Of a stretch of DNA of 64,000 nucleotides, positions 1 to 21,456 are shown one piece after another. Source of the DNA: Yuukianura sp. NJ FZ-2021 (taxonomy: Eukaryota); the NCBI GenBank assembly GCA_046563655.1, contig CM102285.1, positions 7,750,001 to 7,814,000 on the forward strand, read 5' to 3'. Both the position numbers and the translations under genes were made by a program. Positions within the stretch are counted from its first letter, which is position 1; the number at the start of each line of letters is the position of its first letter. The notes under the pieces were generated by a model. It had not been told where the DNA came from. It saw only the letters and a list, made by a program, of their open reading frames with translations, and searched no databases.

Positions 1-2
1 TT

Positions 3-720: not shown

Positions 721-834
721 AACTTCTACCTGAAAATTTGAGATAAAAAGGCCGTTCGACTGCTCAACAAACCATCAGTCTCATCACAGCTTCAGTCGGA
801 ACTTCTTCTCAAAAACTACTCCTCAAACACTACA

Positions 835-1257
835 ATGGTTGAAGCATACGCTGCAGGATTCGTAAGCAAGACTCTTGAAGATCGGGTCAAATGCTGGTGG
901 AAGCTGGAAGATGGAGAATACAAAGTCTTTATCAAGAAGGATCGCTACTACACCACAATTGAGATGAAGGAAATTCCATTCCTCGTCTCAAAGCTGATTC
1001 TCTTCTTTCTGTCTACTGGCCATCCAATGAGTGAGCTGCCAAACTTTGAATTATTGCTGCTAGATTGCAAGGAGCGTTACGAGGATAAGCGTCAACCAGA
1101 AAAGAAACCGAAGATGGACATTGTGGCTGAAGCGATGAGCAAGGCTGTCTGGAACCGAAAATCTCCGTCGCTGAAACCTCGTCTGAATACTATCCCCGAA
1201 GAAGACTATGACGAAGTTGATACACAAAAATACTGGATTGAAGACACAAAATTTTAA
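835..1257 (+). CDS. Polinton accessory protein of unknown function
   Basis: 140-aa ORF with ACAATGG start context, upstream GATAAAA (~742) and TCAGTC (~775), and downstream AATAAA (~1315). Confidence 0.75.
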   Translation: MVEAYAAGFVSKTLEDRVKCWWKLEDGEYKVFIKKDRYYTTIEMKEIPFLVSKLILFFLSTGHPMSELPNFELLLLDCKERYEDKRQPEKKPKMDIVAEAMSKAVWNRKSPSLKPRLNTIPEEDYDEVDTQKYWIEDTKF

Positions 1258-1394
1258 GCCCTTTTAGAAATATTTAAAAAATTTTACAAACTTTGTTAGT
1301 TTTAAGAATTGTAAAATAAAATTTTTGACTCAAACCGAAAAAGTATTTAAACGCTCGTCCTTCATTCTAAACGTTTAGTCTAAATCTAGCAGCC

Positions 1395-2099
1395 ATGGGA
1401 GACTTTTACGTGACTCTCCAGAGTGATTCTTCCTCAAATCATTATCCAGAAAACACAATTACAAATTTTAGAAATCATTTCGCTGAGACAATTCGATTAG
1501 AGGGTGTAAAATACGAGGTGGCGTTAGTAGAGTGTACATATGTTCATCACGAGTATATGCTGCACAAGGAAGGGTGGCTTCGACAAGTTGGTAGCGGGTC
1601 AATCTTTGATTTGCTCAGCATTTCCTCAGAAGACGCTGCATTGATTCGGACTGCAGACGATCTTGCAAAACGTGTATCAGATAATATCGTACAAATTGAA
1701 ATTAGAAATTCGAGGGCCAGGTTTGTCAAGAAACCTGCTAAATCCTTTGTAAGGTTTAACGAAGAGGCTACTAAAATTCTGGGATACGACGAAGGAAAAC
1801 AGAGTTTCGAGTATGAAGTTTTTGAGCCTAGTGGACATACACAACTTTTCATCTACTGCAGTATAATTGAAAACCAACGTGTTGGAGGCGACCTTGCCCC
1901 ACTATTGAGAAAAATTTCAAACACAGGAGATCACAAAAAGGTTGTGACCCGATCGTTTCAACATCTGCAATACATAGATGTTGTATTTGATGACATTGAT
2001 CATATATGGATGTACATCATGACGGAATCTGGTGATCCACCAGCATTTACAGTCGGAACTTTTTCGGCAACTCTCCACTTTCGACGGAAGCGATACTGA
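1395..2099 (+). CDS. Minor capsid protein (penton-like, single jelly roll)
   Basis: N-terminal FYVTLQSDSS..YPENTITNF..YEVALVE and C-terminal LFIYCSIIE.Q.VG...APLLR...ATLHFR, typical of Polinton/adintovirus penton. Confidence 0.88.
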   Translation: MGDFYVTLQSDSSSNHYPENTITNFRNHFAETIRLEGVKYEVALVECTYVHHEYMLHKEGWLRQVGSGSIFDLLSISSEDAALIRTADDLAKRVSDNIVQIEIRNSRARFVKKPAKSFVRFNEEATKILGYDEGKQSFEYEVFEPSGHTQLFIYCSIIENQRVGGDLAPLLRKISNTGDHKKVVTRSFQHLQYIDVVFDDIDHIWMYIMTESGDPPAFTVGTFSATLHFRRKRY

Positions 2100-2165
2100 C
2101 GAGTATAAAACCAGCTCTCTCAAAAAATTTGCAATCATTAACTCTTCAAACGTCAAACTGGCAAC

Positions 2166-2621
2166 ATGTACAAATGCAACTTGAGCGAGGAAGATTTTTT
2201 CAGAATATACAATCCCCAGAGAGGAGGGGCTGTGGGATCAGACGGAGCCGTTTTCTTCAAAGCCAATCAGTTTCGTCAGCGTGGTCATGGAATTGGCGGA
2301 ATTTTTGGCTCAATTTTTCGAAAAGTTTTACCATACGTGGCCAAATTTTTAATGCCTCATGCTAAAACTGCCGTCGCTGGTATTGCCTCGGATGTGATTG
2401 GCGGAAAAAAATCTGTCAAGGAAGCTATTTCTGAACACGGCACGACCGCCTTGAAGGGAGTACTTAAAGGCGTCACGGACGGTATTCTTTCCACTCAGTC
2501 TGGATCTGGACGTTCAAAGAAGAGGAAGCTAAACCAAACTATTGTCTCTAAGAAAAGGAAGCTAAACCAAACTATTGTCTCTAAGAAAAAGAAGCCAAGA
2601 AATATATTTGAAGAACAATGA
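2166..2621 (+). CDS. Basic core/virion protein with adenain-type cleavage motifs (pVII/pX-like)
   Basis: QRGG, QRGHGIGGIFGSIFRK amphipathic segment, QSGSG, then a Lys/Arg-rich tail. TATAAAA at 2104 and TCATT at ~2135 upstream. Confidence 0.85.
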   Translation: MYKCNLSEEDFFRIYNPQRGGAVGSDGAVFFKANQFRQRGHGIGGIFGSIFRKVLPYVAKFLMPHAKTAVAGIASDVIGGKKSVKEAISEHGTTALKGVLKGVTDGILSTQSGSGRSKKRKLNQTIVSKKRKLNQTIVSKKKKPRNIFEEQ

Positions 2622-3919
2622 GTTCCAAACACGCCCCCCATCCAGAAGTAGTGAGAAGTGAAACTGACATTTTCAGTGAACCCGAAATGGATGTTAGTCT
2701 GCAAAGTAGTGGAATGTTTGAATACCACCCCTTGTCAACGTTAAGTGAAAATGGAGGCCCAATTTCTTTTCAAGTGAAGGGCAATGACGTTCACTATGTG
2801 GATCTTAGTGAAACTTTGTTATATGTTCGCTGTAAAATTTTAAAAGCCAATCAAGATCCACTCGATGATAGAGCTACAATGCGAATTGCTCCAGTCAACA
2901 ACTTTTTACATTCCTTGTTTCAGCAGTGCTCTGTGTTTCTAAATGAAACACAAATTACTCCAACCATGTCACTCTATCCTTATCGAGCATACATTGAGAC
3001 TGTGCTTGCTTATGGTGGAGACTACAAAGATACACAAGCAGTTACAGCTCTTTATTTGAGAGAAGAAGACAATTTGACTGACACTGACGCTTCCCACAAA
3101 AAGAGACAAGAATTGGCAACCAAGGGGTTGGATATGATTGGACGACCGTTTGCAGACATCTTTGCACAAACTCGATACTTGCTTCCTGGAATCGACATTA
3201 GAGTTACTTTCAACCGCTCCACCGAAGAATTTGCACTCCACTCTCAAACAGACAACACAAATCGCTACAAAATCAGCATGACTGAAGCAAGACTTTTAGT
3301 TAAAAAACACACACTGCTGCCGAATATTTTGAATTGTCATTTGAAAATGTGGGCAAATGGACAGCCAGCATGCTATCCAATGCGACGGATTGAGATGAAA
3401 ACGTACAGTCTACCCCTTGGAACTCTGTCAAATGTCAATGAAAACTTGATTAGTGGACTACTCCCCGACAGAATTATACTTTGTCTGGTTCAAAGTGAAA
3501 AAATGAACGGAACTCTGGCTACAAATCCATTTGACTTTAAGCCACCAGAGTTGAGACAAATTTCTGTGACAGCAAATGGAGAGCAACTTTACCATCAAGT
3601 TTACCAATACAGCAGTGATGGAGACGTTCGCGTTTCTGAAGCATACTATGGCATGTTTAATGGACTTGGACTGAGCGCTAGCAATGAAGGACCTGCCATT
3701 AGCCTGAGCGAGTTTACTAATGGAAAAGCTTTTTTCATTTTTAACCTCAGAAACATGAATCAAGGCTACTGTCCTCCAAGACACGGCAGTATAAAAATTG
3801 TTGTCCAGTTTGCAAAAGCCATCACTGAAGCCTGGAACGTCATCTGTCACGCAGACTTTCAATCGACTCTCTATATTGACGAAGGAAAGAACGTGTTTTT
3901 CAAGGACTATTCTCACTAA
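2618..3919 (+). CDS. Major capsid protein (double jelly roll, hexon-like, PY)
   Basis: 433 aa; PISF.V.G....YVDLSETLLYV, PVNNFLHSLFQQ..V.LN, YPYRAYIET.L.Y, LP.RII...V, NPF.F motifs. Confidence 0.93.
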   Translation: MSSKHAPHPEVVRSETDIFSEPEMDVSLQSSGMFEYHPLSTLSENGGPISFQVKGNDVHYVDLSETLLYVRCKILKANQDPLDDRATMRIAPVNNFLHSLFQQCSVFLNETQITPTMSLYPYRAYIETVLAYGGDYKDTQAVTALYLREEDNLTDTDASHKKRQELATKGLDMIGRPFADIFAQTRYLLPGIDIRVTFNRSTEEFALHSQTDNTNRYKISMTEARLLVKKHTLLPNILNCHLKMWANGQPACYPMRRIEMKTYSLPLGTLSNVNENLISGLLPDRIILCLVQSEKMNGTLATNPFDFKPPELRQISVTANGEQLYHQVYQYSSDGDVRVSEAYYGMFNGLGLSASNEGPAISLSEFTNGKAFFIFNLRNMNQGYCPPRHGSIKIVVQFAKAITEAWNVICHADFQSTLYIDEGKNVFFKDYSH

Positions 3920-4443
3920 TGGACACGACGCAAATTTACAAGTTTTTGTCAAATATGACTCGCGGAACAAGAGCATATTTCAATGTAATTCCATGTGACC
4001 TGCTTGGAAAGCTAACAATTGCTCGCTTTCCAGCCTACTTGGTTGTAAATAACAAGCCTTCTAATCATCCTGGAGAACACTGGGTGGCAATCTACCTTGG
4101 AAGCAGGACTGGACCCATCATCTTCTTTTGCTCTTATGGACTTGGACTGGACTTTTACCCGCTCGACTTTAAAAATTTTGTAAATAAGTTTTCATGTAAA
4201 ATTTTGGAAAACACTAGACCATTGCAAGCTCTTGAATCTGATGTTTGTGGGCAATATGCAATTTACTTTTTGTATAAAATGATGCATGGCTGTTGTATTC
4301 TATCTACTTATTGTCACTTTTCTCCCAATAGAAATTTAAATGATAAAAAAGTACGCAAATTTGTTACATTGAAAAATCATTTATTGAATTCAAACTGTAA
4401 ATTTAAACACAAAATAATAAATCAATGCTGTATAAAATTGTAA
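3919..4443 (+). CDS. Adenain-like cysteine maturation protease
   Basis: VVNN...HPGEHWVAI (catalytic His), FFCSYG, LQ...SDVCGQY (oxyanion Gln, catalytic Cys). Confidence 0.93.
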   Translation: MDTTQIYKFLSNMTRGTRAYFNVIPCDLLGKLTIARFPAYLVVNNKPSNHPGEHWVAIYLGSRTGPIIFFCSYGLGLDFYPLDFKNFVNKFSCKILENTRPLQALESDVCGQYAIYFLYKMMHGCCILSTYCHFSPNRNLNDKKVRKFVTLKNHLLNSNCKFKHKIINQCCIKL

Positions 4444-4466
4444 AATTTTTTTTGTTTTGTTGAAAT

Positions 4467-5111
4467 TTATTCCCAATTGGCTGGAGTTTTCCACTCTTCC
4501 AGAAAGGTGTAATCTAATCGAGGCCGTTTCCTAGGGGAGCTTTTTCGAGTTTTTCCAGGAGTTGCCGAGTCGTCTTCATCAAAGTGGTGAAGATGTGTTT
4601 TTGGCAGAAGATTTAACGGAAATCCTTTTGAGGTTAAAAAGTTTTTGATCAGATCGAGCTCAGCCTTTGAAATTTTACATCTTCCATTTGACAATTTCTT
4701 TAGAATTGAATCAAATGTTGAAAGTGGTAGTGATCCACCGTCAAATTTTACAACGCCTGAAGCTAGCGTTGCTCCATTGTCAATAAAAAACTGTAAAAGA
4801 TGAACTCCAACTCTAGTTCGGCCGCCAAAGTCAAACTTCTCATCTGGCTCGGGTGGGGTCTCCACTGATGGTACGTCTACTGGCGGATCTGGTACAGCTT
4901 TAACAAGAACATCTGATTTCTCACGTTTTTTCTTTTCTGCTAATCGTCGTAGCACATCTTGAAGTAACATGTTTTGAATTTCTTCCGAATCGTTAAGATT
5001 AAGCAAATGGTTTTTTTCATTTTCAAGTCGTCCAGCTTCAGTTGGTTTTGAAGTTTGAGACATTAGACGCTCAAAGTCCTCATTGCTAATGACCTTCAAT
5101 TTTGTAGGCAT
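4467..5111 (-). CDS. Polinton protein of unknown function (likely start MPTKLKVIS, 214 aa)
   Basis: First ATG of the long ORF is at 5111, 2 nt after the stop of the upstream minus-strand gene. Helical N-terminus, Pro-rich linker, basic C-terminal PRKRPR (NLS-like). Confidence 0.7.
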   Translation of the reverse strand: MPTKLKVISNEDFERLMSQTSKPTEAGRLENEKNHLLNLNDSEEIQNMLLQDVLRRLAEKKKREKSDVLVKAVPDPPVDVPSVETPPEPDEKFDFGGRTRVGVHLLQFFIDNGATLASGVVKFDGGSLPLSTFDSILKKLSNGRCKISKAELDLIKNFLTSKGFPLNLLPKTHLHHFDEDDSATPGKTRKSSPRKRPRLDYTFLEEWKTPANWE

Positions 5112-5113
5112 GT

Positions 5114-5449
5114 TTAAAACAGTTCGCCTAGAAGCTCTCCTATAACTGGAATTGCTGCACCAAGTAACAACGGTAGGAATCCGCCTTGCTGAACAAGAAG
5201 ACGACGCTTGTGATCTGCTCTTCCTCTGTGTGATATCAGACGTCTGATGTGTTCCTGGTGAGGCACAAGGCGTTTTATAGCTTTGGCTGGGATCTCCAAG
5301 CGGCCATTGTAGACATTGTGAACGCATTCACAAATTGCACCAATTTGCTCAGGGCTTGCACAATTCAAATGAAAACCTCGTTTCTTTTCAGAACGAGAAT
5401 TCAAGTTTTTTAGAAAATTGAGATGCTTGTCGATTTTGGTTCTGACCAT
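5114..5449 (-). CDS. Small basic virion protein with QQGG cleavage motif and amphipathic C-terminal peptide
   Basis: I.AICECVHNVY.G.L.I...KRRLLVQQGGFLPLLLGAAIPVIGELL, a pattern I associate with small Polinton/adintovirus virion proteins. Confidence 0.82.
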   Translation of the reverse strand: MVRTKIDKHLNFLKNLNSRSEKKRGFHLNCASPEQIGAICECVHNVYNGRLEIPAKAIKRLVPHQEHIRRLISHRGRADHKRRLLVQQGGFLPLLLGAAIPVIGELLGELF

Positions 5450-5467
5450 TTTGATTGCTGGAAAGTG

Positions 5468-5508
5468 AATGATATAAATTGCGCTGTACAGTGTCCTTTT
5501 ATATCATT
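5468..5508. promoter_or_regulatory. Palindromic bidirectional TATA promoter (predicted)
   Basis: AATGATATAAA (5468-5478) and its exact reverse complement TTTATATCATT (5498-5508) around a central CTGTACAG palindrome, between divergent ATGs at 5449 and 5515. Confidence 0.7.
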
Positions 5509-5514
5509 TACTCA

Positions 5515-6434
5515 ATGGATCTGAAACAGCAATGGCTAGACACCTCGCTGCCTGGAGGCTTCTCTGGAGCGGCTGGGTTTCAAAAAGATTCAAAAACTAA
5601 GGCATCTCTACACCGTGTCAAGAAAATTTTAAAACAAATTCCAAGCTATCAACTCCATCATCCAGTTCGATATAAGTTTCCACGTCGACGGGTATATGTG
5701 GGAGGTATGCATGAACAGTACTGTGCAGACTTGAAAGACATTCAAAGCATGTCAGGATATAACAATAAGAAGAGGTACTTGCTGGTGGTGATTGATGCAT
5801 TTTCAAAACAAGCCTGGATCGAAGCAATTCCAAACAAGACGGGGCCAGTAACTCTTGCAGCATTCGAAAAAATTTTACAGCGAAGTGGTGGAAAACCTAG
5901 ATGCTTGCAAGTAGATGAAGGTTCAGAATTTTTAAATAGACACATGAAAGCTTATTTGAAGCGTGAAAATATCAAACTCTTCTGGACACATTCTCCACTA
6001 AAATGTGTCATTGTGGAGCGTTTTATTCGGACACTATTTATGAAAATTCAGCGCTACTTGACACACTACAAAACAAAAAAGTTTGTTGATAAATTGACAG
6101 ATTTTGAAAATCTGTACAATCATGCTTATCATCGAAGCATCAAGATGGCGCCATGTGAAGTGACTAAAAGAAATGAGGATAAAGTACGCCAAAACTTGTA
6201 CCCAGAAGTAGCAGTAGACTATAAAAAGCCAAAACTCAAAGCAAACGATCTTGTGCTTGTTGCCAGAATTAAAAAACTTTTGAAAAGGGCTACTCGACAA
6301 ACTATATTGACGAACTTTATCGCATTGTAAGGATTAAAGCGACTAAACCATACGTTTACAAGTTAGAAGATCTCGAGGGCACCCCTATTCTGGGTAGTTT
6401 TTATGACAAGCAACTACTGAAATTGGACCAGTAA
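5515..6434 (+). CDS. Retroviral-like (RVE) DDE integrase with a one-base frameshift near 6271-6276
   Basis: CADL / VIDAFSK / QVDEGSEF / IVERFIRTL / YNHAYHRSIKMAP motifs. The conserved C-terminus TFEKGYSTNY..Y.I......Y.LEDLEG.PILGSFY continues in the -1 frame to TAA at 6432-6434. Confidence 0.92.
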
Positions 6435-6458
6435 CTCTATAGAACTCGATCAGAAAAC

Positions 6459-6635
6459 ATGTGTTTTTTCAAAGTTTGTGAGTACTTTTTGACCAAGATG
6501 TTTGGAAGCAAGGAAGATCCCACCATTTCCGTTTGCGACGAGAACAAGATTAGCTGCATGTGCTGCTCAACCACTGCAAGACGAGACTCGACCAAGAAAC
6601 AACATACTAAAACTATTTTAGTTACTGAATTGTAA
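6459..6635 (+). CDS. 58-aa Cys-rich microprotein ending in VTEL (not in ORF track)
   Basis: AAAACATG start; MCFFKVCEYFLTKMFGSKEDPTISVCDENKISCMCCSTTARRDSTKKQHTKTILVTEL*; AATAAA at 6636-6641. Fills the gap between integrase and ATPase. Confidence 0.6.
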   Translation: MCFFKVCEYFLTKMFGSKEDPTISVCDENKISCMCCSTTARRDSTKKQHTKTILVTEL

Positions 6636-6705
6636 AATAAATTTAATTCAAAAATTTCTGAATAAATCAATTCAAAATGCACAAAATTTTTGTTTTAAAT
6701 TTTAT

Positions 6706-7617
6706 TTAGTCGTTGACATAAACATAACAATTTTCGGGGAAAATGCTACTTCGAATTCGATAGTCGTCCTTTTGTGATTGAGTTAAATCAATCAAGAGAT
6801 ATCCATATGGCTTTGCCATGCTTTCCTTGTATGCCAAGTCCATTGTCGCGTTCTTCTTTCCTCCATTCATTTGTCTTCCAAGACAGGAAACAAAAGCAGA
6901 GTCTCGTGGATTCTTCATCAGTACCAAGTACTGGCAATTGAGTGTAATTTCTCTCAAGTTTTTATGGAAAAAGTTTTGAACCAAGATGATCAGCGACACA
7001 TTTCGGTGATGAGAAGTTCTCGTAAATGCTGCTCCGACTTCTCCCTTTTTTCCAGCTTCATGCATCAAATCGTCCAGAACCATGATCGAAGGTCGATCTG
7101 TACCGTCATGCCATTTCTCGGGTAGTCCATGAACAAACTGAATGCCAGGAATTTTAGCTTTAAGTTCTCCAAAGAGCCCGCTCTGCCACTCCGTGTAACA
7201 ATACGTTACATTTGCAATTCCACTTGAAGATTTTACAATTTCGTTTCTCCGAATCAAAATTTCTTTGACGAGTGTGCTTTTCCCCGTGTTTGTCATTCCA
7301 CTCACACACATTGTAAAAGGAGCCACAAGTTGCAAGTCAATATCGTCTCCAGATAATGGATGTTGAAGCAGAGCGTGACTCCTCCAACCTGCCGCTGTGG
7401 CGGCGGCGGCGGTGGAGTCCCAGGGCATTGCGGCGGCGGCGGCGGCGGTGGAGTCCCAGGGCATTGCGGTGGCGGCGGCGGCGGCGGTGTGGGCGGCGGC
7501 GGCGGTGGGAGAACCCAACAGTAATGCTACCGAGAGACATTTTGAACAAGTTTTTTCGTGACGTTTAGCAACATCTAAACGTGAAAATAATTTCCCACAG
7601 CGAGAGTACACACTCAT
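6706..7617 (-). CDS. A32/FtsK-HerA family DNA packaging ATPase with N-terminal extension
   Basis: PFTMCVSGMTNTGKS (Walker A), IMVLDDLM (Walker B), SHHRNVSLIILVQN, PYGYLLIDL. ATG at 7617 with TATATAAA ~50 bp upstream on the minus strand. Confidence 0.93.
   Translation of the reverse strand: MSVYSRCGKLFSRLDVAKRHEKTCSKCLSVALLLGSPTAAAAHTAAAAATAMPWDSTAAAAAAMPWDSTAAAATAAGWRSHALLQHPLSGDDIDLQLVAPFTMCVSGMTNTGKSTLVKEILIRRNEIVKSSSGIANVTYCYTEWQSGLFGELKAKIPGIQFVHGLPEKWHDGTDRPSIMVLDDLMHEAGKKGEVGAAFTRTSHHRNVSLIILVQNFFHKNLREITLNCQYLVLMKNPRDSAFVSCLGRQMNGGKKNATMDLAYKESMAKPYGYLLIDLTQSQKDDYRIRSSIFPENCYVYVND
7395..7510. repeat. (GCC)n-rich repeat with an internal ~39-bp duplication inside the ATPase ORF
   Basis: Four GGC/GCG runs and two copies of GGTGGAGTCCCAGGGCATTGCGG; encodes poly-Ala and MPWDST twice. 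Confidence 0.9.
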
Positions 7618-7746
7618 AGTGCAAAGAGCAAATGACAACTAAACTTCAACTTCAGAAATGACTTGGTTTATATACAAAAAATTTTTTATTATACAAGTAT
7701 TTTAAAACTATTTTTTAAATTTATTCTAACTTAAAACAAAAAATTT

Positions 7747-10700
7747 TTATTTTGGAATATCTTTGTGACCAAAAGCTAAAGTGTTTACATTATCTACAGC
7801 GTATCTCTTGGTGTCCAATCCGTTGAGGGCCTTCTTCATGGTGACCTCTGTGAAAATTCGATGTTCGACACTTCTGAAACCGCGCATGGTGACCATAGTC
7901 TGAACATTCTCCTTGAGGACTCTCTCATAGTCTTCAAACTTGACTTGACCGTTAACAGCTGTTTTTGTGATTCCCTTTGCCTTCTTGGTATACTCATCCT
8001 TCAGGAGCCATTCACCATCCGGCTTCTTTTGGAATTCTCCTCCGACTTGTGCTACCTTTAGGGATCGAATTGTGTACATCTTTGGCCGCGGGCAGTAGAC
8101 ATGAGTGATCACCGATCCGGCAGTCTCGTCCTTGAATTTTCCCAGAACTTTCTTATTCGTCGGATCGTGAAATCTTCCAAACAGCGGATGATTTTCTGGG
8201 TATTCACTCATATCATAGTGCTCCCTTTGCTGCAGCATGTCTTCATAAACATCATTGGTCTGGATGTGATAGATGAATGAATCTGAAACAAAATATAATC
8301 GAAATATAATCAGAAACTGAAAAGCTAAGACTTGAGAGTTAATAAAGTACCTGTGTCAGTGTAAATCAGACGGCACTTGTCGCCATATCGAGTCTGCATC
8401 ACCGCTCTGTGATGCCGATACATAATACTTTTAGCAAAGTCCAAAATGCTGACTCCTGTGAAGATTGGCTTGTTGAGGGTGACTTGAAGCCGTTTCATCA
8501 TGAAAATACATGTTGTTTCGTTAATGGGGATCACATTTTGAACAGTAGGCTTCTTGTTGTAGTACAGCGCCTTCTCCATTGTTGTGACTACCCGAACGTT
8601 TTGTCGTTTTCTAACTTGCTCAATGGTTTTACCGAAAGCAGAGTTGTTTAGCAACTTCCAAAAGTCTTTTGCAAAGTCACTTGTGGCCTTCTTCCGCATT
8701 TCAGTATTAAAGTCAATGAATTGCTTCATCCACGGCCCTTGGATAAAGGAAATTCCACGGTGGACCTTTGTAACCTTGGCCCCCATTTTGAGGTATTCTT
8801 TAAGCACCTCCTGGTGCAGAATGTAGTTTTTCTTGTTATTTAGATCTGCAACCAGCTTTTTGACTTTGAAAAGTCCAGGTCCTGACTTGAGATCCTGTAA
8901 GAGTTGATTTTGATGTGCAGAGAGCTCTTCCATTGGAACAGTTCTGGCAACTGGAGCCGGAGGGTAATCATTCAATTTTTCATGAAGACTGGCATCAATT
9001 TCCAAGTCGACTTCCAACATGTAACCAATGACTTTCTTCCTTTCTGTTTCGGCAACAAAGTCGTCGATATTGCTGGAAATTTTCTCGACTTCTTCTTCTG
9101 TGAGCCATTTAAATTGACCAAGAGGAAGTGCAATACTCATCGATTTGCCCTATAAATATCATAATTGTGAAAACTGAAACAATACATTTAACTTTATAGA
9201 CTTACATATAAGTTGTTGGCATCAATGTAAAGAATGTAAAATAACGCTTTCGTTGGATCGAATTCATCACCCATATACGGATTGTTGGCGACGGCTTCCC
9301 GTCTAGAGCCAACACTGACATAGCCGCCTAAAATAAAAATTTATTAGACCGGGATCGATTTAAATGTAACACAATTTTCTTACCTCGAATTCCGTGTTCT
9401 ATCCAGCAATGCATCGTAGGATCGGTGATCAAGTCTAGAACGACCCCTGATTTCTTGAGAACACAGTCCATCGCCATCATTGGCAGGGAAAAATAATGGC
9501 CCAGTTCCAGCCCGTAACTGTCCATCATAAGTTTTCGAACACCTTCCATTACGTCAGCTAGCAGGGACACGTCCAGACGAACGTAGAGGTCATGCCACTC
9601 CCCCATGTTTTGAATGTTAAAACTCTTCCAAACCTCCTTTGCGTGATTGTAAACAGCGTCTTGAATTGGTGTTTCGGTCATGTCATTGAAGAACGCTTCT
9701 TTCGGAGGTAAACTTGTCATTTCAAAGTCTTCACAGGATTTCATAAGTGAGTATGGGTAGGCGCCCTTCTTGAAGAGAAGATCAATGTTGGCACCATTTT
9801 CAACTTCTTTCTGAAACTCCTGTCTAGTTATGTCAAATTTGGCATTTGGGTCTTTGCGCATAACTTCAACCAGCTTGTCCAGTGATTTCAATGTGAAACC
9901 CAGACTGTCGGTAAAACGGAGCTTATATTTCTCACGTCGTCTCACGTTTTCTCGCGTGATCTCCTCCTCTACGTTTTCTTCTTCGCCCGAACGTTCCGGT
10001 GATACGGTGACACACAAATACTTCTCGCTACTCTTTGGGATCACTTCAACGTGACTGATGATTTTATCTTCCGTTAGCTTTCCCATGGCCTGAATCAAGA
10101 AGTGCACGTCGTAAGATGAGAAGTTGTGTAGAAAGACTGGGAACTCTTTTTTAATTTGAGCCTGGAGATTGCAGTCTTGATGAGCCATGCCGATATAGTT
10201 GAATGGAGGGAGATGGGAATGATGACGCACTTTCCAGTCCGTCTTCTCAAAAAGCTTCTCACAGAAACAGCAGAAACGGGCAGTCTTTTTCTCTTCCCGC
10301 TGTCTGGGAGTCATGTTTCTTTCCAGCATATCAGGAGCAATTCGCTCATACTCGTCCACTTCGTCGCCAAGGGTTTTGGAGAAACGAAGGATGCTTTCCA
10401 TGAAGTGTGCAGCAATGTCTTCATCGTCTTCTGTGGCGTGATAGTATTCGCCATGGCGGCGCTTCCCCTCGAAATCCACACAGACCCATGCATAGCCGCA
10501 GGGCTTGTGAGTATGCGTACAACGATGATTTTCTGTTGGCTTACTTTTGATCCCGGTGACGCGTTCTTTAAGTTTTCGACGCTCGTCTTCTTGCTCGGCT
10601 GAGGTATGAAATTTTGGCAGAAAAGCTTCGAAGTCAGCGTAGAATCGAAAAGGTACAGGCTGAGTTCTAGCCCACTTGTTAAAGTACAGTTCGTTTTCTT

Positions 10701-12207
10701 CTGGTTTGGGATACGTGACTTTCTGGAGACCAAGTGCAGCACAAAAAGGTTTATGCTCTTCCAGAGTTTTTGGCTGTTGGAAATTGGAAAGGCAGTTGCG
10801 ACAAATATGCTTCATTCTGTGGTCGTTTGGTGCTCGCATGAGTGTCTCGAGATTTCGAATTAAAACAAAATGAGCGTTGTTACCTTTCATCAGACACATT
10901 AAATCAACGTGGATGTCCTTGATTTGTTTTGAATTGTATAGGATGGAGATGTTGCTTTGAATGTATTTAAAAAGTTCCAAATTTTCCTTCCTTGACTTCT
11001 TCCCTTCTTTTCTCTCTGGAGCTGATGGAACGTCCATGTCGTAACCAAGCACAGTCAATGAAATGTTAGGATTGAGCGCTTCAAATTTCGGGATTTGCTC
11101 GAGAGTCATTGGAAAGTGAAGCCCCGTGGTGTTGACCTTGTGAGCGTGAGGCGCATATGTCTTCACCCGCTTATCAAATTTACTGCGGTTATTGTTTCTT
11201 CCGGCGGGTAACCCAGCGAGTTTTTCATGTGCAAGCACAGACCAAAGGAAGCACTTGTTATGTGAATTCGTGATTGAGATTTCGCTGTTGTCGACATTGA
11301 GTAGTAACTTTTTGTGCTCGGACAACGGAAATGGTGTCTCAATATAAGTTCCCACTTTAGTAAACTGATACTTGGCCGTTACAAACCTGAATTCTGATAT
11401 GTAATCAAGATCCCATCCACTGCCTTCATGCGTAAAGTCTTCAATCTGATCAGACATTTCATGACACATGATTGACCACACACGAGATAATGACGCTGGG
11501 GTGAAGACAAGATGGCGGTAAGAAGTAAAGCCTGCATCCTTGGTTTCAATACTGCCATCTGCGTGTGTTTTTGTGAAGCGACATTTCATGGAAAAGAAAA
11601 CTCTCACATTCTTCCACTTTTTGAGATCATTTTCAATGTTATCAAACGATGATTGTTGTACACTGTTGAAAAAGTCACGCTCATCGAATCCGCTACCACA
11701 CTGGAATTTCTCAAACTCTGCCAAGTACTTTGTACACATATTAAGGGAAGTAAGAACAGGCTTCACCAAAATTAGTTCTATAGCCGACGGCTGAAGTCCT
11801 CCAGTTTGTACACTATAAAAGTCTGGATGCATATTGTGGAAATGTTCTTGAAGTTTGTCTCGACAGTTGAACGATAGACCACAAGGTGGACACAAAAGTT
11901 CTCGATATACTTGAAGAATTTCATGGTTTACTGGAAGAAAGGCAGGTTCCTGGAAATCTTGATCGTGACGCTCCATGAAGTGGTTGTCCAACTCTTCTTG
12001 AGCGAAGAATACAGCAAAACAAACTGGACACTCAAAATCCGCCATTTTCCCACAAGGTAACTGACGAAAGTCCTCGTCATGGCTACTAACATGAGCTGCC
12101 AAGTCTTTCTTCTTGTAGAACTTTGCGCCACAAATTGGACACTCGTGATTCCTGACACAAATTTGCTTCGACGAGCCAGCCACTGGAGATGCTGTTCGCT
12201 TTGACAT
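7747..12207 (-). CDS. Protein-primed family B DNA polymerase (pPolB), 4 exons: 12207-9384, 9327-9206, 9149-8351, 8282-7747; ~1426 aa
   Basis: Splicing restores GIRGG, YIDANNLYGKSMS..LP, KLLNNSAFGKT, YTDTDS and KKAKGI. Exonuclease motifs YADFE, HNFSSYD, Y..LDV. Three N-terminal C2H2 fingers, CFLWSVLA..HFVLI segment, and an EndoVII-like C..C..HH.H..AH..CN insert. Exon lengths 2824+122+799+536 = 4281 nt, in frame. Confidence 0.95.
8283..8350 (-). other. Spliceosomal intron 3 of pPolB (68 nt)
   Basis: ACAG|GTACTT...TTTTGTTTCAG|AT; removal gives YTDTDSFIY. Confidence 0.92.
9150..9205 (-). other. Spliceosomal intron 2 of pPolB (56 nt)
   Basis: TAT|GTAAGT...ATTTATAG|GGC; removal gives DANNLYGKSM. 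Confidence 0.92.
9328..9383 (-). other. Spliceosomal intron 1 of pPolB (56 nt)
   Basis: CGAG|GTAAGA...TTTTATTTTAG|GC; removal gives GIRGGYV. Confidence 0.92.
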
Positions 12208-12339
12208 CCTTAGAAATAGTTAAAATAAAATAGTTATTAAAAAACCTAACGTAACATTTGGTGCTAACCATAATAAATAGTTAAATACTTTAAAATGTTA
12301 AAATCGTTCAAAAAGATGAGTTAATTTTACCCATTGAGA

Positions 12340-12890
12340 CTGTGTTTTGTGCTGATTAGTATAAAAGTTTATCAAAAAACCGCTTAAATGCTTTGTGACC
12401 AGATGGACAGACATACAGACAATATTATAAAGTAGCTTCCGCCACTTAATGACTGTTTTCATTAAAGAAACGTTTTACGGACAGACACATAGACAAGACC
12501 GTAAAGTAGCTTTCGCTCCTTCATAACTACGTTCTGAGTTGTTTAGTGAAACATATAATTAAAATAACGCTTAAATGCTTTACGGACAGACGGACAGACA
12601 AGACCGTAAAGTAGCTTCCGCTACTTTATAACTACGTTCTGTTTTGTTTAGTAAAAAGTTAATTCAAATAACGCTTAAATGCTTTACGGACAGACAGACA
12701 GACAGACAGACAGTTAGGTCCTAAAGTAGCTTCCGCTACTTTATAACTACGTTCTGTATTGTTTAGTAAAACGTTAATTCAAATAACGCTTAAATGCTTT
12801 ACGGACAGACGGACAGACAGACAGTTAGGTCTTAAAGTAGCTTCCGCTACTTTATAACTACGTTCTGTATTGTTTAGTAAAACGTTAATA
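12340..12890. repeat. Subterminal tandem array, ~5 units of mostly ~105-115 bp, each with a (GACA)n tract and a hairpin
   Basis: TAAAGTAGC-TTCC-GCTACTTTA at ~12607, ~12722 and ~12833, degenerate at ~12428 and ~12502; each preceded by GGACAGAC(AGAC)n. Confidence 0.92.
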
Positions 12891-15189
12891 ACCTTTAGCG
12901 AGTTTTGCTTACCTTATTGTAGTAGTCCGTATTGTTGTAAGTGCTGATTTTGTATAGTATATGCTACTGTCTGCTTTAATTGAGTTTAAATTTAAGTGTC
13001 TTGATTTTCGACTAGTGAATACGTCAAATGTTGGGAATGAACTGAACAATTTTTTAAAAACTCTTTGAATTAAAAGGACAGCTGAAGTCTGAAATACAAA
13101 TTCTATTTTAGAAAAGTATTCGTTTTGCCTCGGGTGTTGGAGAATTCTAGGAATTGACAAGTTCAAACAAGAACTTTTTCGTTGCAGACACAAATAAGGA
13201 GTTTTCAGAAGGACAAAAATACAATTCTTAATCCGGAAAAAGGTTGGGGTTGCATTCCAATACAATTTACAAGAATACAGGGTCATTTGTCGAACATTTT
13301 TGACAATTAACTAAAAGGCTTTCTTGTTCTTTTTAGATTTTGAGGAACCCTTTTCCCCCTCCCCAATATTGCGCCCGACTAGCCCCCGCGGCTGAGCTAA
13401 AAATAATTTACCGCAAGATCCGATCCTAGCCTCTACTACTAAGCCTAAATAAACCTAAGCCTAATGGTGACATTTTGACAGCCTGACTGCTCAAAGGGAA
13501 AAGTCCGCAGTGACATGATATTTAATTCCTTTTGTGCCTTTTGTTACAGTTTCTTTATGTCTGATAGTTCAAAACCGCGTATTTCTTGCTTTACCAAATA
13601 AACGAAAAATATTTCAAAATTAAATTTTTTCCATGAGTTAGTAAAGCAATTCTGCTACAATTTTCCAATTGAAGATTCATGATTTTGTCACAAAATTTTT
13701 GTTTCTAAGTTTTTTTTTTATTATGCGAAATCTTTTTTTATGTGTTATTTGAACTGCCCTGCTGCTTTCGGAATGGCGGGATTTCTAGAGTATGGAAGCC
13801 CTTAAGATGCCTCTTTTCTCGTCTTCTTCTGTTTGTGGTCAAATCGAGAGTTAAAGATGCACAACGTGCATTAGGGATTAAGGACGGAGTTCAAGTCCAT
13901 TCCCAAAATAGTCAGATCGAGATCATGGTCTTTCCTCAGCGTCGTGCGGTGCTTTCTCTACTTGCTTCCAAGTTTTATGACTTTTGGGCGCTTAGTCGAC
14001 GACAGAAACCTTTTAGAGTAGGTAATAGGTTTCTAGTTCCAGTATCCGTTCACCATTAATTTGATTCCTTTGCGTCGTTATGCTGTTTTCACTTCCACTA
14101 TAAGATTTTACAAACCATTCATTTACCTATCCACTTAAAACTAAATCTTGTTGCCTCACCATACCTAAATTGCTTATGCTTAGGTTATGCAGTCGATGAC
14201 TTCATAAGATCAGAATAACCTAATCAGGTTACAGCATACTGTTGGAGGTCGGCAGAATTATAATACGTTCAACCGTTGAAAAGAAATACATAAAAACGGA
14301 GTAGGTTTTTTTAAGTTGAGTTTCTTAGAATGTTGCGTATTTTTGGCGGATGTTCCGTTTAACAAGTGAAAGCAATATGTCTCTTATGCCACCGTTCTCT
14401 GTTGCGACATGCTAAGTTGGGAAGAAGGCTGGAAGCAATTTCGTTTGGTTCCAGAAGAATCCTATTAACATAAGCCTAACATATCTCTTTCCCTTCCTCC
14501 GTTTTCTGGAAGCACTCGTAGGAACCAGCACAAGGGAAGTATCATCCAATTTTCTCCTCCCGAATTGGAATTATTAACGCCCGTCTCTCAGGGATTGACT
14601 TGCTTCTCTAGTGAATTCAGATTTTGCTTTTTTTTTTTGTTAAGGTACATAAAATAAAAAAAAACCAACAGTTGTTTTTCAAAATTCGGTATGTCAAGAA
14701 TCAGGTTTGCAAAACCTTCTTCAATTATTGCAAAAGCAATTGCTTGATACGCCAACTCATAAGCATTCTAAAAAAAAACTCCGCCTTATATTTATAATAT
14801 TTTTTATATATTGTTTATACTTATATATTATACTTATATTTATTTATATATGTATACAGAATATTTCCTGATGTAAAGGAGGTGGACCAAAAACGAAACT
14901 TTTTTTATTACCTTTTATAGGAAATATCTCGAAGAATACATATTCACATGTTGCATTTTGAAAGTATAACTTTTCCTTGTGCAAACTTTCTCTGTTTTTT
15001 CCTTCTCCGTCTGCTGAAAAGTTGGTTCGTCTTGCTCAAGTCCGATTCAATTGTCCGGATTTCCTGCTTATTTTTGGCTTCAAATGCAAATTCCTATTTG
15101 AAACTTTTTCTTTTCGTTCAAGCAAAAGAAGAATTGAGTTTCCTTTTCACAAAAGCAGGAACTTAAATAAAATTCGAAAACTATTTCTA

Positions 15190-18100
15190 CTACAGACTTA
15201 GCTACACTTTTCTTCTCTTCAAAATACGAACACTCATTTTTAAACTTTCTTTTGTAAACTATGCAATCGAATTCAATTTGTCCCTTCACTTCACTAAATT
15301 TTATTGTTGATGAAGTTTATTTAAAGAAAATAATATATGATTTTAAGTCAAGCTTGAACCAGGTTGTGTAGTAAATTAAATCATCTGCTTGAATTCGATA
15401 GATTATTTCAGTTTTTAAATTCGGCTTTTCTTTGCATGTTTTGCATAGAATTCCCAAAGATAACAACCCGAAAAGCCTTTTCGGTTTTAGTTACTTGATT
15501 GATTTATTACGCAAAGTAGCTGGCGGCGATGTTGTTACTCGTATCGTGGAGATTGTGAATTGCTATGTTCCAGGGTAAAAGCGGAGGGAAAAACGCTTGT
15601 TTGCAGGGTTACCTGTTTGAATAAATTCAAACGTTAACAATCCTTTAGGAGTCCTTTCCAAACTTGAAAAAGTTTTAGACTTTGAACAAGTTTTGAAACT
15701 GGAGGAACAAAGAAAAAATTGGAAAAAGAAGGCAGGAAAAAGTCAACATGGAGAAACGATTCTTAAAACACGAACGTAAGATCGGTTTTCTCTTCTATAA
15801 GAAATTGGAGAGCTTAAAAGCTTTACCGTTTCTTTACCTTATTGCACTTGAATTTTCCATCTTTAAGAATAAACTGTCTGCAATGACTACATAAACAAGA
15901 ATCCTGTCAGATCAATTTTTGAAAATTCCCTGCAAAATATTGATGACATTTACTTCTGACCTTGTTAGAGGTCATTTGAATTTGAACAATCGAGATTTCT
16001 GTGTCGTCAACCATCCATCGCCTGAAACACTTCCTGAATCGGTTCATTTGTTTTGGATTGTAAAAATGACGATAACCTTGACATTTTACCGTGTTAAAGG
16101 TTAGGTTAGATTACCGTGTTAAAGGTCACTCAAGGTTAAAAAAGTACCATAATCTTATTCGCCGTCTCATCAAAAATCCTACCCTGCATACCGCTTCAAA
16201 ATCTGTTCAATCATTTCCGGATTACATACAGAACGTTGACCTTGGCCTCTGACACTTAAAAGTTTGACGTCAATTGGAAAACAGATGTGTGTCATCAGGG
16301 CAGCAGCTACTAACGAAAACCGGTTGCAGGTTCGTATACTAGCTCTCAAGTTCCAAGCATTACAGATTACACGGACGAACGGACGGACGGACAAATACCT
16401 TATACGTATGTGACGACACTTTACAAATTACAAACCGTTTGATTTTATTTTTGAAATTTCAGGAAATAAGTTAGCTGTTCATCTTTGTCGTAGTAAGAGT
16501 TTTACAATTTTGATTTTTATTGGTAGAAAAATATTTGGAAATGTTTTTTTTAGATTGCTTTGTATCCGTCGTCCTTTCTTTTTCATAAAATATGAGAAAC
16601 GTATCAAGAAAGGGATTCAGATGTGTGGAGAATTTTAAATTTAAAACGTGTGTGTCGAAGTCCGGGGAAGTGGAAAGCGTGGAAATGTGGAAACAAGATT
16701 TCTCCAGTTTTACCTGGGATTTTACAATTTTAACCAAGAAAAAATCAAAGGTTGATCTCTATGTAATCTCATGGTGAGAGGATGAGAAATGAAACTTTTT
16801 TTTTTCAAGGAAATGGAAATTACGTGTCTCTTATGCTAAATTTCCAACAGGGGTTCCAAACCCAAAACAACTTCAGACGTCGTTCTAAAAGTGAAAGTAA
16901 CAATTTTGTTTCAAAAACAAAGAAAGCCTTCTCCCGGGTTCTCCCTTCTGTTTGATTTAATTTTGTATGCACGGTGTTGTCCTGTGTACGCCATTCACCC
17001 CTCGCAAGAAGTGAAAGCGATAAGAGCAAAGTTTTAGAATTGAAAGTCAACTCAAATGAAACAATAAATCAGGACCACAGAAAGTCAACTTTACATTTCA
17101 TTATCCTAAAAAATATAAATGAGATTCTTTTTAATTTTGAATTGAATTGTAAATGAAATAACTATACACATTGGCATCACAATGACATTCAGAATTGGCC
17201 AGTTATATTTTTCCATATTATGATTGGGAAGGTAGCAGTCTGGAAAGTAGAAATACTTTTGCCAAAAACTGAAAAAAAACTCGTGTTTCGTTTCATGGCA
17301 TGAGTATTACCAGAGGTCATGTCAATTGAAGTTTTTGATCTGCGCAATGCGGACTGCAGGGAAACACAACTGCCCAGGATGTTAAGCCCAATTCTGTGAC
17401 TCAAAGAATAATTTATAAGTAATAATCTTCCACCACTTATACTTTCACTGGGAACGACCAAATGGAAACTGTGAATTTAATGTCAGAAAGTTTCTTGTCT
17501 GGACACGAAACGAAACTCGACTCCCGTGTTCGTTTCCTCATATTTTGGACACAAAAAGAAACGTTTCGTGTCGTATCGTTTCTGTGTCTATATGTAAGCA
17601 CGACACGAAACAAAACCCAACGAAACGAGACACAATCAGAGTTCACATGACACAATTTCGGCAAAACTAAATCCCACATTTTGACTTTTCAATTTTAACA
17701 AATCCCTCTGAGTCTTTCCCAAAGTTAAGTAGAGTTAGTTTTCGGTAATTGGTGAACTCCAAAGCGCATATGAATGAAACCTAAGAAAATTTCAGATTGT
17801 GTTTCGTTGAAAAACTGGCATTCAGTTGAATTTATCTAAACTTGTTACATTTTGCAACACTGTTATAGATAAAGCACTAGTTCTTACGGGCAATTGATTT
17901 GAATCAGCATTAAAATAAAACCCGAATTTCACGTCCCGTGTCGGCTCGTTTTGTGTTGGTATCGTGTCCGTTTTGTCTCCGTATCTATAGAAAACAGGCC
18001 GTGTCGTATCGTGTCTAAACCTCTCCGTTTCGTGTAGTTTCCTTGTGTTGGAAACGAAGTTGCCAAGTCTAGTCGTCAATTCCAATAAAAATGCTTTTCT

Positions 18101-18530
18101 CTACGTTACAATCCTCATCAAATGTTGAAGCCAAAGAAAGAAAAATGGACCATAAAATTCTTACTGCCGCCGACTAAAAAGAAAGTGAATGATTTCTATA
18201 CAAAAAAACCAAATCCAACTGCTCCAAATGGGTTGTGGTCTAACTCCTTTAAAAATCCCTGTGTTGTTTTCAGCAGGAATGACTGTCAACTTTATGTTTA
18301 ATATGTTTAGTTCAAGAATTGGAATTCAGGATTGGAATCCGAACACACTGGCAGAACGAGATTGGGTTAGCGGTGTTAGGTTTCACAGATTCTGGGTTTT
18401 AAATTCTAAAGATGTGATTTGAAAATAGTCATTTAGTTTAGACTTTTAGATCGTGAGATAAAAGTTTATTTTTATATGAGGTTGACAGTGCTATTCTCAC
18501 AATCACTGTTATGTGTATTACCACGCCAGC
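15190..18530 (+). repeat. Local segmental duplication, copy 1 (copy 2 at ~41275-47650)
   Basis: Colinear similar blocks: TTCTTCTCTTCAAAATACGAACACTC (15210/41293), GAGTCCTTTCCAAACTTGAAAA (15649/42669), CACAATCACTGTTATGTGTATTA (18498/47615). Confidence 0.9.
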
Positions 18531-21456
18531 TTACAACGAACTTACAATCCAAATCACAGTTATTCGACGCTTTACTAAACCCTCTACTTTCTATGTGTTC
18601 AAATATTCGCTTTGTTCCATTTCGTTCGATTTCACAGTGTGTTCAAAATAGTTATTGGCCAATACGAAAACTGCAATTCTACCAACACAATTGTAAAAAA
18701 ACGGACATGGACTTACCAAAGAAAAAACTACAAAAGATGTTTGAATTCTTTAAGACTTTTTTTAGTTCAACCGTTTGCAAGAAAAATCTACAAAATTCAT
18801 TTCGAACGTGTGGGCCTTTTACTATTGATTCATTTTAAGGCTTCAAAAAATGTTAGAAAAATTAGTCAACAGCTCAGCTTAAAACCACTTCACACCCAAG
18901 TTGAATATCAGTAGCAAGGAAAAACTACCAAAATTTCTGTTCTTTTGTTTTGATGCAGCCAAATCTAGAGCATGGTCTACTACAGGTTAAATATTTATCG
19001 TAAGGATATCGTAAAAGAGTATATTGGAGAATTTGTTTACTACTTTTAGCGTAATTTTTTAGAATCCATTTTCCAAGTTTTGTCTACTTATACCTACTGA
19101 TCCAGGTAGATACAAATGGTGCGTTTTTATCCATTTCTTCCACTTTTAAACATTGCCTTTAATGTCATTTGCTCATTTGGACTCTAGAGAATCCGGTTCC
19201 GCGGTGTCGGTTAGTTCTGGAGAAAACGACCAATTTGTCAGAAAGAACAAGCCCGTTTCGATTCACTGGGAACCTGGAGAGCAGTCGCTATGCAACTTTA
19301 AGCTCAACTTAGGCAAGCTACAAATACCTTTGGAGAACAATGAATTTGTGTGTTAGCAAGTACTGTGTCGTGGTACTAATTGAGTCGTTTCTCTTCTGTT
19401 GACTAGAACTAACCGTCCCCGGTGAGGCAGAGGCGAGAAAGCTCAGGTGAAAGCATTAGGACTACTTGGGGAATTCTAAATTCAATTTCACTTTCCCATT
19501 TTTCACAAACCAGAAACATTAACGACTCCTGCCTTGCCTGATTTCCTGACTCTGCTCCGTTGACCTCTGACCTGTGCCTAATCCTCCCAGAACTTTTTTT
19601 TAATAATTTGTTCCACAAGCTCACGTTAAAGTAAGGAATCAATTCCTTTCTAGACCACAAATATTTTCTTCACCCAGGAGCACTATACTCGCTTTGTAGT
19701 TTTTTTTTTGAAGGTCCTTTAAAGTGGACCGAATCTAAACATTTCTCTGCAGTTAAACATTACGCTTAATAAAACTGTGCAATCTTTTTACTGTTTTAAT
19801 GTTCAATTTTGTTCCATTCGTTGGATTTAAACCTTTTTTGGATTTGTAGATTTCAAACGAAAAAGTGGCTTTGTTTTTGAGAAAGGAAATTATTCCACAA
19901 GCACGACCACTTCTGCCTATTTTTCTATTTCGTTGGTTGTGTCAAGTAACATGTGGATTTTTGTGAAAAATCCGATTCACAGTGAAATGGTGTAAAAGAG
20001 ACAAAGACAAAGAAGATGCCAGATCGTATTTGCCAGTTCAAGTAGTTTCTCCTTCAACGAGAAGATTTATGTCCCTCTGTCCTCCTGTACTGAGATATGT
20101 ACTTTGGTCTCTGGAACTTCTTCAAGGAACCATATGAGGAGACTTCTGGTAGTTCTGGACAAAGGAAGTGTGATAGAACGTTCACAAAGCGAAAGTAGCT
20201 CAAAGACCAGTTTCACTCTCACTTCTCCTAGAAAAACACGATAAGGATATCCGTCTATGAAATTTCTTACCAGGAAAGTTCAAATTCCAAATCCAATTCC
20301 ATCCATTGAGAAAGTAAATCCACTACCTAAATCCTAACCTAACCCTTTTCCCCAGTCTATCTTTTCCAAATCTCATTCTTCTTTTTGTGCTCTTCAGACG
20401 AAATGTGACACCCTTCACTTTGGGCACTAAGTGCCCATCTCAAGGGGTCGTGTCTTTTTTAGGACTTGTACATAGGGAGAATAGACGGGAAACATATGCG
20501 TTTTTTTTGGCACATCCCAGCCCTTCAAGTTTCTCATTCTTTGAACGTTTTCTCCTTTTTTGGAAATAATTGGTTCCTTATCCGTACGAAGTTGACTAAA
20601 AGTTTTGCGCGATGTTTATGCTTCGAACAAAAGCTGTGAAGTTTTAGGGTGAAAAATTTTTATGTCTATTTTTCGTGCGAATGATACGAGCTTTTTGATC
20701 TGTGACCTGTTTGACTGTTTGATCTTTTTGACCTACTTATTTAATGAAGGGTACAAAACTTTCGCTTTTGCCAATTCTTGAACACAATTTATTTTTGAAA
20801 AAAAAAAAGATGAAAAGATCATCGAATTCTATGCTTGTACGAAAATAGCGTTTGTGTAAGAAAACTGGTTTTATTTGTAAAGCCTCAACTGTCTTATACA
20901 CTGTATTCTCAATACCCACTTCTAGAATTACAAGCGTTTTGTTTCTGGATGACTCCTTAAGATACCTTCTCCATTCCTTCAATTCGAACATTCTTTATCA
21001 TATGGACTTTGCTTTTATGTTAACTTGAAAACATGAATTCTTTGGAAGTGAATATGAAAGGGAGTTGTTAATAACTATTAAGTAAAATCACCGCAAGTTA
21101 TAACAATACTATAGAAGATACTCCAGGGATAATGATCATTTTAACTTAAACGAGACAACCTTGAAGAAACATTTGCCATTTGCTTTAGTAAATGAATCAC
21201 ACCAACTACTGTTTCGCGAACTGCTATATACAAATTAAACTGACGCGAGTTAAAATATATTTGGTACTATGCGAGCACTACTGAGTGAGTCCATTTTAGT
21301 TTTGATACATAGGTTCAGGGGTAACCGAAATTACTAAAACAAGCGCTTCAAAAAATGGAGTAGAATTGGTTTATGATTTTTGATGGGAGGCAGCCGTGGG
21401 GACTGTGTAAAGTTAGGTGAGCGTTTGGGTCGTTAGTGTTCACACGCAGAAATATA

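Follow-up and report, generated by a model that had tools for sequence, protein, structure and literature searches.

Polintons (Mavericks) are treated as virus-like elements whose core genes are compact and intronless, and copies are recognised as intact on this basis (PMC8097293, in its available text). In that text, no introns are reported for intact vertebrate Mavericks, and the short 'introns' proposed by Genewise are taken as damage (Barreat and Katzourakis, 2021), with Kapitonov and Jurka (2006) being cited there for the same absence of introns. The accessible part of a preprint by Widen et al. (2022, 10.1101/2022.07.12.499685) likewise describes intronless core genes with introns in cargo only, and spliceosomal introns go unmentioned in the accessible portions of Jeong et al. 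(2023, PMC10748475) and Starrett et al. (PMC8502044). In dinoflagellates, eupolintoviral elements have been described that harbour introner transposons, of which about a quarter lie in coding sequence (Gozashti et al., 2025, PMC12166617, available in part). In the literature searched, as far as its available text goes, we found no animal Polinton polymerase reported to have spliceosomal introns, and an earlier description may exist. Here we analyze a Polinton-type element in a stretch of 64,000 nucleotides (nt) from Yuukianura sp. NJ FZ-2021 (assembly GCA_046563655.1, contig CM102285.1, positions 7,750,001 to 7,814,000, forward strand), hereafter the window. Its protein-primed DNA polymerase gene, pPolB, is interrupted by three short segments, which, in our assessment, are very probably real and maintained spliceosomal introns of the U2 type (GT-AG), within a replicase gene that belongs to a multi-copy family of Polintons.

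Structure of the polymerase gene and fit to its homologues

As read from the window sequence and its open reading frames (ORFs), the pPolB gene occupies the minus strand (12207..7747) as four exons in three frames, cut by three GT-AG segments of 56, 56 and 68 nt (Table 1). Exons 1-4, joined by script, form a sequence of 4281 nt with 1426 codons, in which the sole stop is terminal. All three segments share GT..AG termini and a T-rich 3' end, their removal restores the frame, and their computed guanine-plus-cytosine (GC) content is 0.21-0.27 vs. 0.42-0.44 for the pPolB exons. The window sequence shows polymerase motifs A, B and C; the site of intron 1 lies just upstream of motif A, and intron 3 splits the Asp codon that opens the DS half of motif C. 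Without splicing, the frame of exon 1 would gain 18 extra codons and reach a stop at 9330..9328, giving 959 amino acids (aa) from the ATG, and an in-frame stop is met 3 to 18 codons into each of the three introns. The first-pass annotation of this DNA had proposed the same structure, and its coordinates, exon and intron lengths, product of 1426 aa, junction motifs and 959-aa frame were all reproduced by our sequence reading and script join; its claim that no active enzyme could come from unspliced RNA agrees with the position of these stops.

Table 1. Coordinates (window numbering) of the pPolB exons and putative introns and of the other genes of the element
Feature	Position	Strand	Remarks
pPolB exon 1	9384..12207	-	ATG at 12207; 941 complete codons, then base 1 of a Gly codon; N-terminal C2H2-type zinc-finger region, exonuclease part, start of polymerase part
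Intron 1 (putative)	9328..9383	-	56 nt, GTAAGA...TTTTAG, phase 1, GIR/GG, GC 0.25
pPolB exon 2	9206..9327	-	122 nt; motif A at its end (..DANNLY)
Intron 2 (putative)	9150..9205	-	56 nt, GTAAGT...TTATAG, phase 0, NNLY/G inside motif A, GC 0.21
pPolB exon 3	8351..9149	-	799 nt; motif B + first half of motif C (..YTDT)
Intron 3 (putative)	8283..8350	-	68 nt, GTACTT...TTTCAG, phase 1, YTDT/DS, GC ~0.26
pPolB exon 4	7747..8282	-	second half of motif C through stop TAA at 7749..7747
Packaging-ATPase-like gene	6706..7638	-	uninterrupted; weak Pox_A32 match, E 0.0048, under cut-off
rve-type integrase	5473..6431	+	PF00665, E 4.5e-11
Small conserved ORF	5461..5117	-	counterpart on L088 and L014
Presumed virion module (four consecutive ORFs)	~1356-2090, 2169-2495, 2615-3901, 3901-4374	+	each uninterrupted

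The junctions fit the homologues of the gene closely. A query with exon 3 retrieved 537 longer relatives, the best named ones being from the springtail Folsomia candida (48-50% identity). When nine full-length, intronless homologues were compared with the window by tblastn, all nine gave four collinear pieces in three frames, exon 2 emerging each time as a piece in its own frame, and neighbouring query coordinates either abutted or overlapped by a few residues at all three junctions (e.g., 171-826, 824-864, 865-1122 and 1113-1275 for P0012). Two of these homologues (P0010 and P0011) are single ORFs on contigs of 5 kilobases (kb), and in a consensus built from ten relatives, RGG, DANNLYG and YTDTDS are continuous across the junctions. 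Three frame-restoring GT..AG insertions in one gene are, on this sequence reading, far beyond chance, which we put for three GT..AG ends at about (1/256)^3, counting the dinucleotides alone.

The nine collinear homologues, together with the match of one of them (P0013) to the Pfam family of organellar and viral type-B polymerases (PF03175, E 7.6e-18), agree with the identification of the gene made in the first-pass annotation, and by these relationships its predicted product is a protein-primed polymerase of the Polinton/Maverick type (adintovirus-like). The window exons taken singly did not reach PF03175, Pfam returning weak C2H2 matches only, and a search of PDB sequences with a profile of ten relatives gave no match. 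The weak C2H2 matches fall in residues 21-132 of pPolB (window 12207-11800), where three C2H2-type zinc-finger-like units can be seen. The intronless relative P0011 likewise begins with such a unit, and the N-terminus of the window pPolB is about 260 aa longer than those of the polymerases on the virus-like contigs L088 and L014.

As to the kind of intron, two other candidates were tried and rejected. A self-splicing intron of group I or II, or an intein, does not fit segments of 56-68 nt with in-frame stops and no Rfam family; at the gathering score, Rfam found no family anywhere in the window, and a tRNA scan of the window was empty. An origin from introners was discarded as well, the segments not being repeat copies within what was searched (the window and the 80 metagenomic loci L001-L080 described below, rather than the genome): they have no match longer than 15 nt to each other, elsewhere in the window or in these loci, apart from one 18-nt hit at chance level. 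The window also holds two putative host genes with introns. A coiled-coil gene (61457-63131, plus strand) has GT-AG introns at 62011-62100, 62365-62417 and 62563-62663, placed by ORF continuity only, with lengths of 90, 53 and 101 nt and GTAAG or GTAAC donors. The last two exons of an ABC half-transporter (49353-48490, minus strand), separated by an intron of about 340 nt, share ~60-65% identity with ABCB-type proteins of bacteria and fungi, and hits to the fragment spread over plants, rotifers, nematodes and bacteria; as no upstream exons were found, they may be what remains of a former gene. Because both carry introns, short introns appear to be normal in this genome, and those of the element thus resemble host ones.

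The gene would be expressed as follows. pPolB would be transcribed in the nucleus, where the host spliceosome would remove all three introns and thereby join palm motifs A and C, and retention of any intron would end translation within a few codons. Copies or close relatives without single introns would then reflect ongoing precise gain or loss. Both the splicing and the dependence on host splicing are what we infer from the DNA.

Recurrence and history of the intron positions

Eighty metagenomic loci with 35-55% identity to exon 3 were scored at the three junctions. Of these, 65 are continuous across junction 1, 67 across junction 2 and 78 across junction 3. Coverage is missing at junction 1 in 11 loci and at junction 2 in 6; an edge falls on junctions 1, 2 and 3 in 3, 6 and 2 loci, respectively; and junctions 1 and 2 are each split in a single locus. 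The locus split at junction 1 is L067, through an intron described below, whereas the one split at junction 2 (L077) has a frameshift of a few bases; three loci with an edge at motif A (L046, L060 and L072) proved to be truncations or frameshifts, and L077 and these three are not counted as introns. At other sites in pPolB, two loci do have clean GT-AG introns: L067 with two, of 65 nt (2806-2870) and 92 nt (3550-3641; in motif B), and L057 (1496-2497) with four, of 88, 94, 85 and 116 nt, in the exonuclease half. Their positions differ from those in the window, the 65-nt intron of L067 lying 3 nt (one codon) downstream of the site of intron 1, and motifs A and C are uninterrupted in both. Judging by these predicted gene structures, an intron-bearing pPolB is not unique to the window element.

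More distant relatives are known from predicted proteins rather than from DNA, with intron ends and downstream exons out of sight, and an intron at a window position would show in them as a characteristic derailment. For a phase-1 GT intron in the Asp codon of motif C, a Gly is expected after DT, and the next codons observed (K, N, M, T) fit GTA donors. Five members of one family show this break: P0340 and P0341 (321 aa) start with an F/L-rich segment directly before GGYV, resembling a translated pyrimidine tract, continue through motif A and terminate as YTDT-GKS-stop, an ending shared by P0242, P0338 and P0339, where the stop is internal to the contig, since contigs reach up to 3263 nt. A search of viral_contigs did not find the DNA of the P0242 family. 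P0002 is continuous at junctions 1 and 2 and derails at motif C as YTDT-GKS, P0245 ends as YTDT-GKN, and P0244 runs on as YTDT-GN. Among the best 150 cluster representatives, motif C is unbroken in 122 and has an xTDT-G break in three (P0358, P0399 and P0400); of the remainder, eight matched the pattern elsewhere in the protein and 17 gave no match. Counting the P0242/P0338-P0341 family, P0002, P0244, P0245, P0358, P0399, P0400 and the window, motif C is broken at the identical phase and codon in eight lineages with mutual identities of 32-63% (94% between P0242 and P0340).

At R/GG, the site of intron 1, one other family is interrupted too, and the ORFs P0340, P0341, P0243 and P0246 are bounded by this position. 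The signature of intron 2 (Val after motif A) is present in none of the 246 motif-A occurrences in 361 related proteins, and this intron looks private to the family of the window element. The conservation of intron positions raised in the first-pass annotation is therefore seen for intron 3 (seven other lineages) and intron 1 (one family) and not for intron 2 (none). An unbroken motif C is found in the closest relative, P0248 (82% identical), and in P0003, P0008, P0010, P0247, P0250, P0324 and P0327. As a separate observation, which was not counted, some ORFs, such as P0009 and P0244, start at a conserved Met just after motif A, which might point to additional introns near that site.

From 34 exon-3 segments we built a quick maximum-likelihood tree, leaving out L006 (which has a stop in its translation), P0358, P0399 and P0400. 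All six rows with an interrupted motif C fall within one group of 17 rows (Shimodaira-Hasegawa-like approximate likelihood ratio test, SH-aLRT, 87), beside 11 uninterrupted rows. The tree needs four state changes, a number reached by 18 of 500 label shuffles, and its well-supported branches are compatible with a single intron origin. The interruptions may go back to one old gain followed by several precise losses, or to repeated gain at a favoured site (..CAG/A, ..GAG/G). At least some of the near-coincidence must be independent, because the L067 intron is offset by one codon.

The shared positions may accordingly be parallel gains at favoured sites in invariant motifs, each lineage having acquired its introns after settling in an intron-rich host, a history that we regard as quite conceivable, though short of an even chance. 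It concerns history only and is compatible with the segments being spliceosomal introns. The exon ends at introns 1 and 3 are protosplice-like (..GAG/G and ..CAG/A), the L067 intron, being 3 nt off, is not the same intron as intron 1, the introns of L057 and L067 include ones at wholly different sites, the nearest relative has no intron 3, and the four state changes of the tree point the same way; set against this are the grouping of all interrupted rows, with a single origin compatible with the well-supported branches, and the identity of phase and codon in eight lineages. Somewhat more tentatively, the introns at R/GG and in motif C (YxDTDS) might be old and mark a whole, hitherto unrecognised set of animal-associated Polinton lineages with obligate host splicing of the replicase. 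They would have been lost repeatedly and precisely, and kept elsewhere since spliced transcripts might escape a silencing directed at intronless foreign genes, or be better expressed; we consider this version possible, and rather unlikely as a whole.

Sister copies, competing explanations and the surrounding element

Sister copies were sought in contigs from four DNA runs (X1-X4) of two studies, compared with the window over 7600-12400; the runs contain hundreds of diverged pPolB contigs. In one form (X1 and X3), contigs skip 59 nt at 9329->9389 and insert 3, which makes them 56 nt shorter, the length of intron 1, and a loose end from X2 reads across this junction as G-I-R-G-G-Y-V with two synonymous codon changes. 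In another form (X2 and X4), 82 nt are skipped and 12 inserted at 8268->8351, a net change of -70 vs. the 68 nt of intron 3; this record carries further small gaps, and the absence of intron 3, being judged by net length, is approximate. Other copies keep their introns: introns 1 and 2 in record 24 of X4 (4 mismatches) and record 11 of X2 (33 mismatches), and intron 3 in record 7 of X2 (56 mismatches, with 10 nt deleted within the intron), the sole indel seen in the intron 3 region of intron-keeping copies thus being intron-internal. X1 and X4 are genomic DNA, because they include contigs of 403 kb and 275 kb, respectively, and intron-free forms exist as DNA in diverged copies. Differences between copies were examined in the 40 best-supported cases, a small and selected sample beside 1232 more; 38 of the 40 are exonic, 25 of them synonymous and 13 not, distributed 11/5/22 over the three codon positions, and this synonymous bias points to purifying selection among copies.

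The first-pass annotation had held that sister copies showing the segments to be copy-specific insertions would speak against introns. Sister copies without the segments do exist, and the intron reading nevertheless stands, since interruptions recur at these positions in relatives sharing only 32-63% identity. The exact ends, the recurring positions and the synonymous bias together make maintained introns, not decay, the most likely state of this gene. Several points weigh on the other side. Splicing is known by inference from DNA only, and intron 3 begins with GTACTT rather than with the common GTAAG donor. With its frame-broken integrase, this copy may be inactive, and selection may no longer act on its polymerase; intronless sister copies could supply polymerase in trans. 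Recurrence in the distant relatives was read from predicted proteins with unseen intron ends, and the interrupted state of motif C is a minority state (uninterrupted in 78 of the 80 loci and 122 of the 150 representatives).

Retention of introns might itself be a means of regulation, the 959-aa N-terminal/exonuclease protein setting the ratio of a terminal-protein-like product to polymerase, as the first-pass annotation had suggested. The open frame for this protein exists, and one other family is interrupted at the intron 1 site as well. However, no sign was found that the N-terminal part of pPolB acts as a terminal protein, and mRNAs in which a premature stop precedes additional introns are commonly degraded by nonsense-mediated decay, which counts against the proposal. 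Such a switch is unlikely to be essential, given that intron 1 or intron 3 is missing from sister copies and from the closest relatives; the suggestion found no support, and we hold it to be improbable.

The segments could also be unspliced, disruptive insertions and the polymerase a pseudogene in a decaying copy, an explanation in keeping with the broken integrase, with the existence of sister copies lacking the segments and with the practice of vertebrate Maverick surveys of taking short Genewise 'introns' as signs of degradation (PMC8097293, in its available text). It would have to accommodate GT..AG ends on all three segments, an exact restoration of the frame with no residue lost or gained, the interruption of the same positions in relatives as distant as 32-63% identity, the mostly synonymous listed differences and the confinement of the only indel of the intron 3 region to the intron; on these grounds we judge it very improbable. 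Least credible is a host-domesticated, no longer mobile polymerase that gained its introns as a cellular gene: although pPolB is the only intron-bearing gene of the element, it sits in the usual Polinton neighbourhood of ATPase-like gene, integrase and presumed virion-module ORFs, and diverged pPolB contigs number in the hundreds across the four runs.

That neighbourhood (Table 1) bears on two further statements of the first-pass annotation, namely that the gene is intact and that the other core genes read through. The pPolB coding sequence is indeed open once the introns are removed, and six neighbouring ORFs are uninterrupted, each being a single tblastn piece on the intronless virus-like contigs L088 and L014, where gene order and orientation partly differ from the window element. 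The integrase does not conform: its final ~50 residues are in another frame, with the break within a run of A at 6271-6276, and the copy is not fully intact, because its integrase is frame-broken. The shifted residues are conserved in relatives, and in nine of ten relatives compared the integrase is single-frame (it is split in L052 too). The break (window 6268-6300, run of six A) may reflect a genuine mutation, an assembly error in the homopolymer or slippage of the ribosome. The packaging-ATPase-like ORF shows 60% identity to an ORF beside pPolB in L030 and is collinear with L088 and L014.

Between the virion-module ORFs and the integrase lies a 286-aa ORF (4467-5327, minus strand) that overlaps the small conserved ORF (5461-5117); it had no relative in any fetched locus, no Pfam match and, among PDB sequences, a single hit at chance level. 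Directly upstream of the pPolB start, a unit of ~115 nt is repeated in tandem about four times at positions 12380-12890; every copy includes an 8+8-nt palindrome as well as a (GACA)n run, and this stretch may be a subterminal or origin-like region of the element. Sister-copy homology fades past ~12270. Positions 1-20000 of the window contain no long or terminal inverted repeat, and the element extends beyond the left edge of the window. Farther away, a GC-rich repeat (0.45-0.49), found in either orientation, has at least three copies (38900-40950, 51100-53000 and 55200-57400); its internal short tandem repeats translate in open frames as ..CHLSPVT.. and ..GGGKVGE.., without Pfam match. An ORF fragment at 37057-37434 (minus strand) resembles, by its motifs, the C-terminal part of a mariner-type transposase.

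Meaning and comparison with known systems

What is new here is a Polinton lineage with position-recurrent putative introns in the catalytic core of its polymerase. A replicase needing three splices would mean nuclear, spliceosome-dependent expression of a viral-type enzyme, and productive transfer would be restricted to hosts able to splice such very short introns. Presence or absence of an intron at a fixed site offers a discrete character for tracing lineages and dating copies. ORF-based censuses would undercount live elements and, if the introns are indeed old, surveys relying on intronless ORFs would wrongly call such elements dead. The break of motif C at the same base in eight lineages also provides a test case for inherited introns vs. 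parallel gain at a favoured site.

Among nuclear DNA viruses, replicase mRNAs made by splicing are well known. The polymerase and pre-terminal-protein mRNAs of adenovirus, a nuclear DNA virus with a protein-primed polymerase, depend on host splicing, in which upstream leader exons are joined to an otherwise continuous coding body; the predicted introns of the window element, unlike this arrangement, cut the catalytic core itself. Penelope-like elements reportedly carry spliceosomal introns in their own gene (work of Arkhipova et al. in 2003). These are retroelements, whereas an element replicating as DNA would keep its introns without any special mechanism.

With the Polintons/Mavericks of vertebrates and nematodes, the window element shares the protein-primed PolB, the rve integrase, a packaging-ATPase-like gene, presumed virion-module ORFs, conserved polymerase motifs and residence in an animal-type genome. 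It differs in that intronless core genes serve there, in the available text of the sources cited at the outset, as a criterion of intactness, whereas the window polymerase would need three splices. The two other intron-bearing pPolB genes of our own set (L067 and L057) are alike in being of Polinton type with clean, short GT-AG introns, and differ in intron positions and in their uninterrupted motifs A and C. The introner-bearing eupolintoviral elements of dinoflagellates are likewise Polinton-like elements with spliceosomal-type introns, some of them coding, but introners, as the accessible part of that study describes them, are multi-copy, intron-generating transposons of protists and are far longer, whereas the putative introns described here are unique in the window, unlike one another and placed at positions that recur across lineages.

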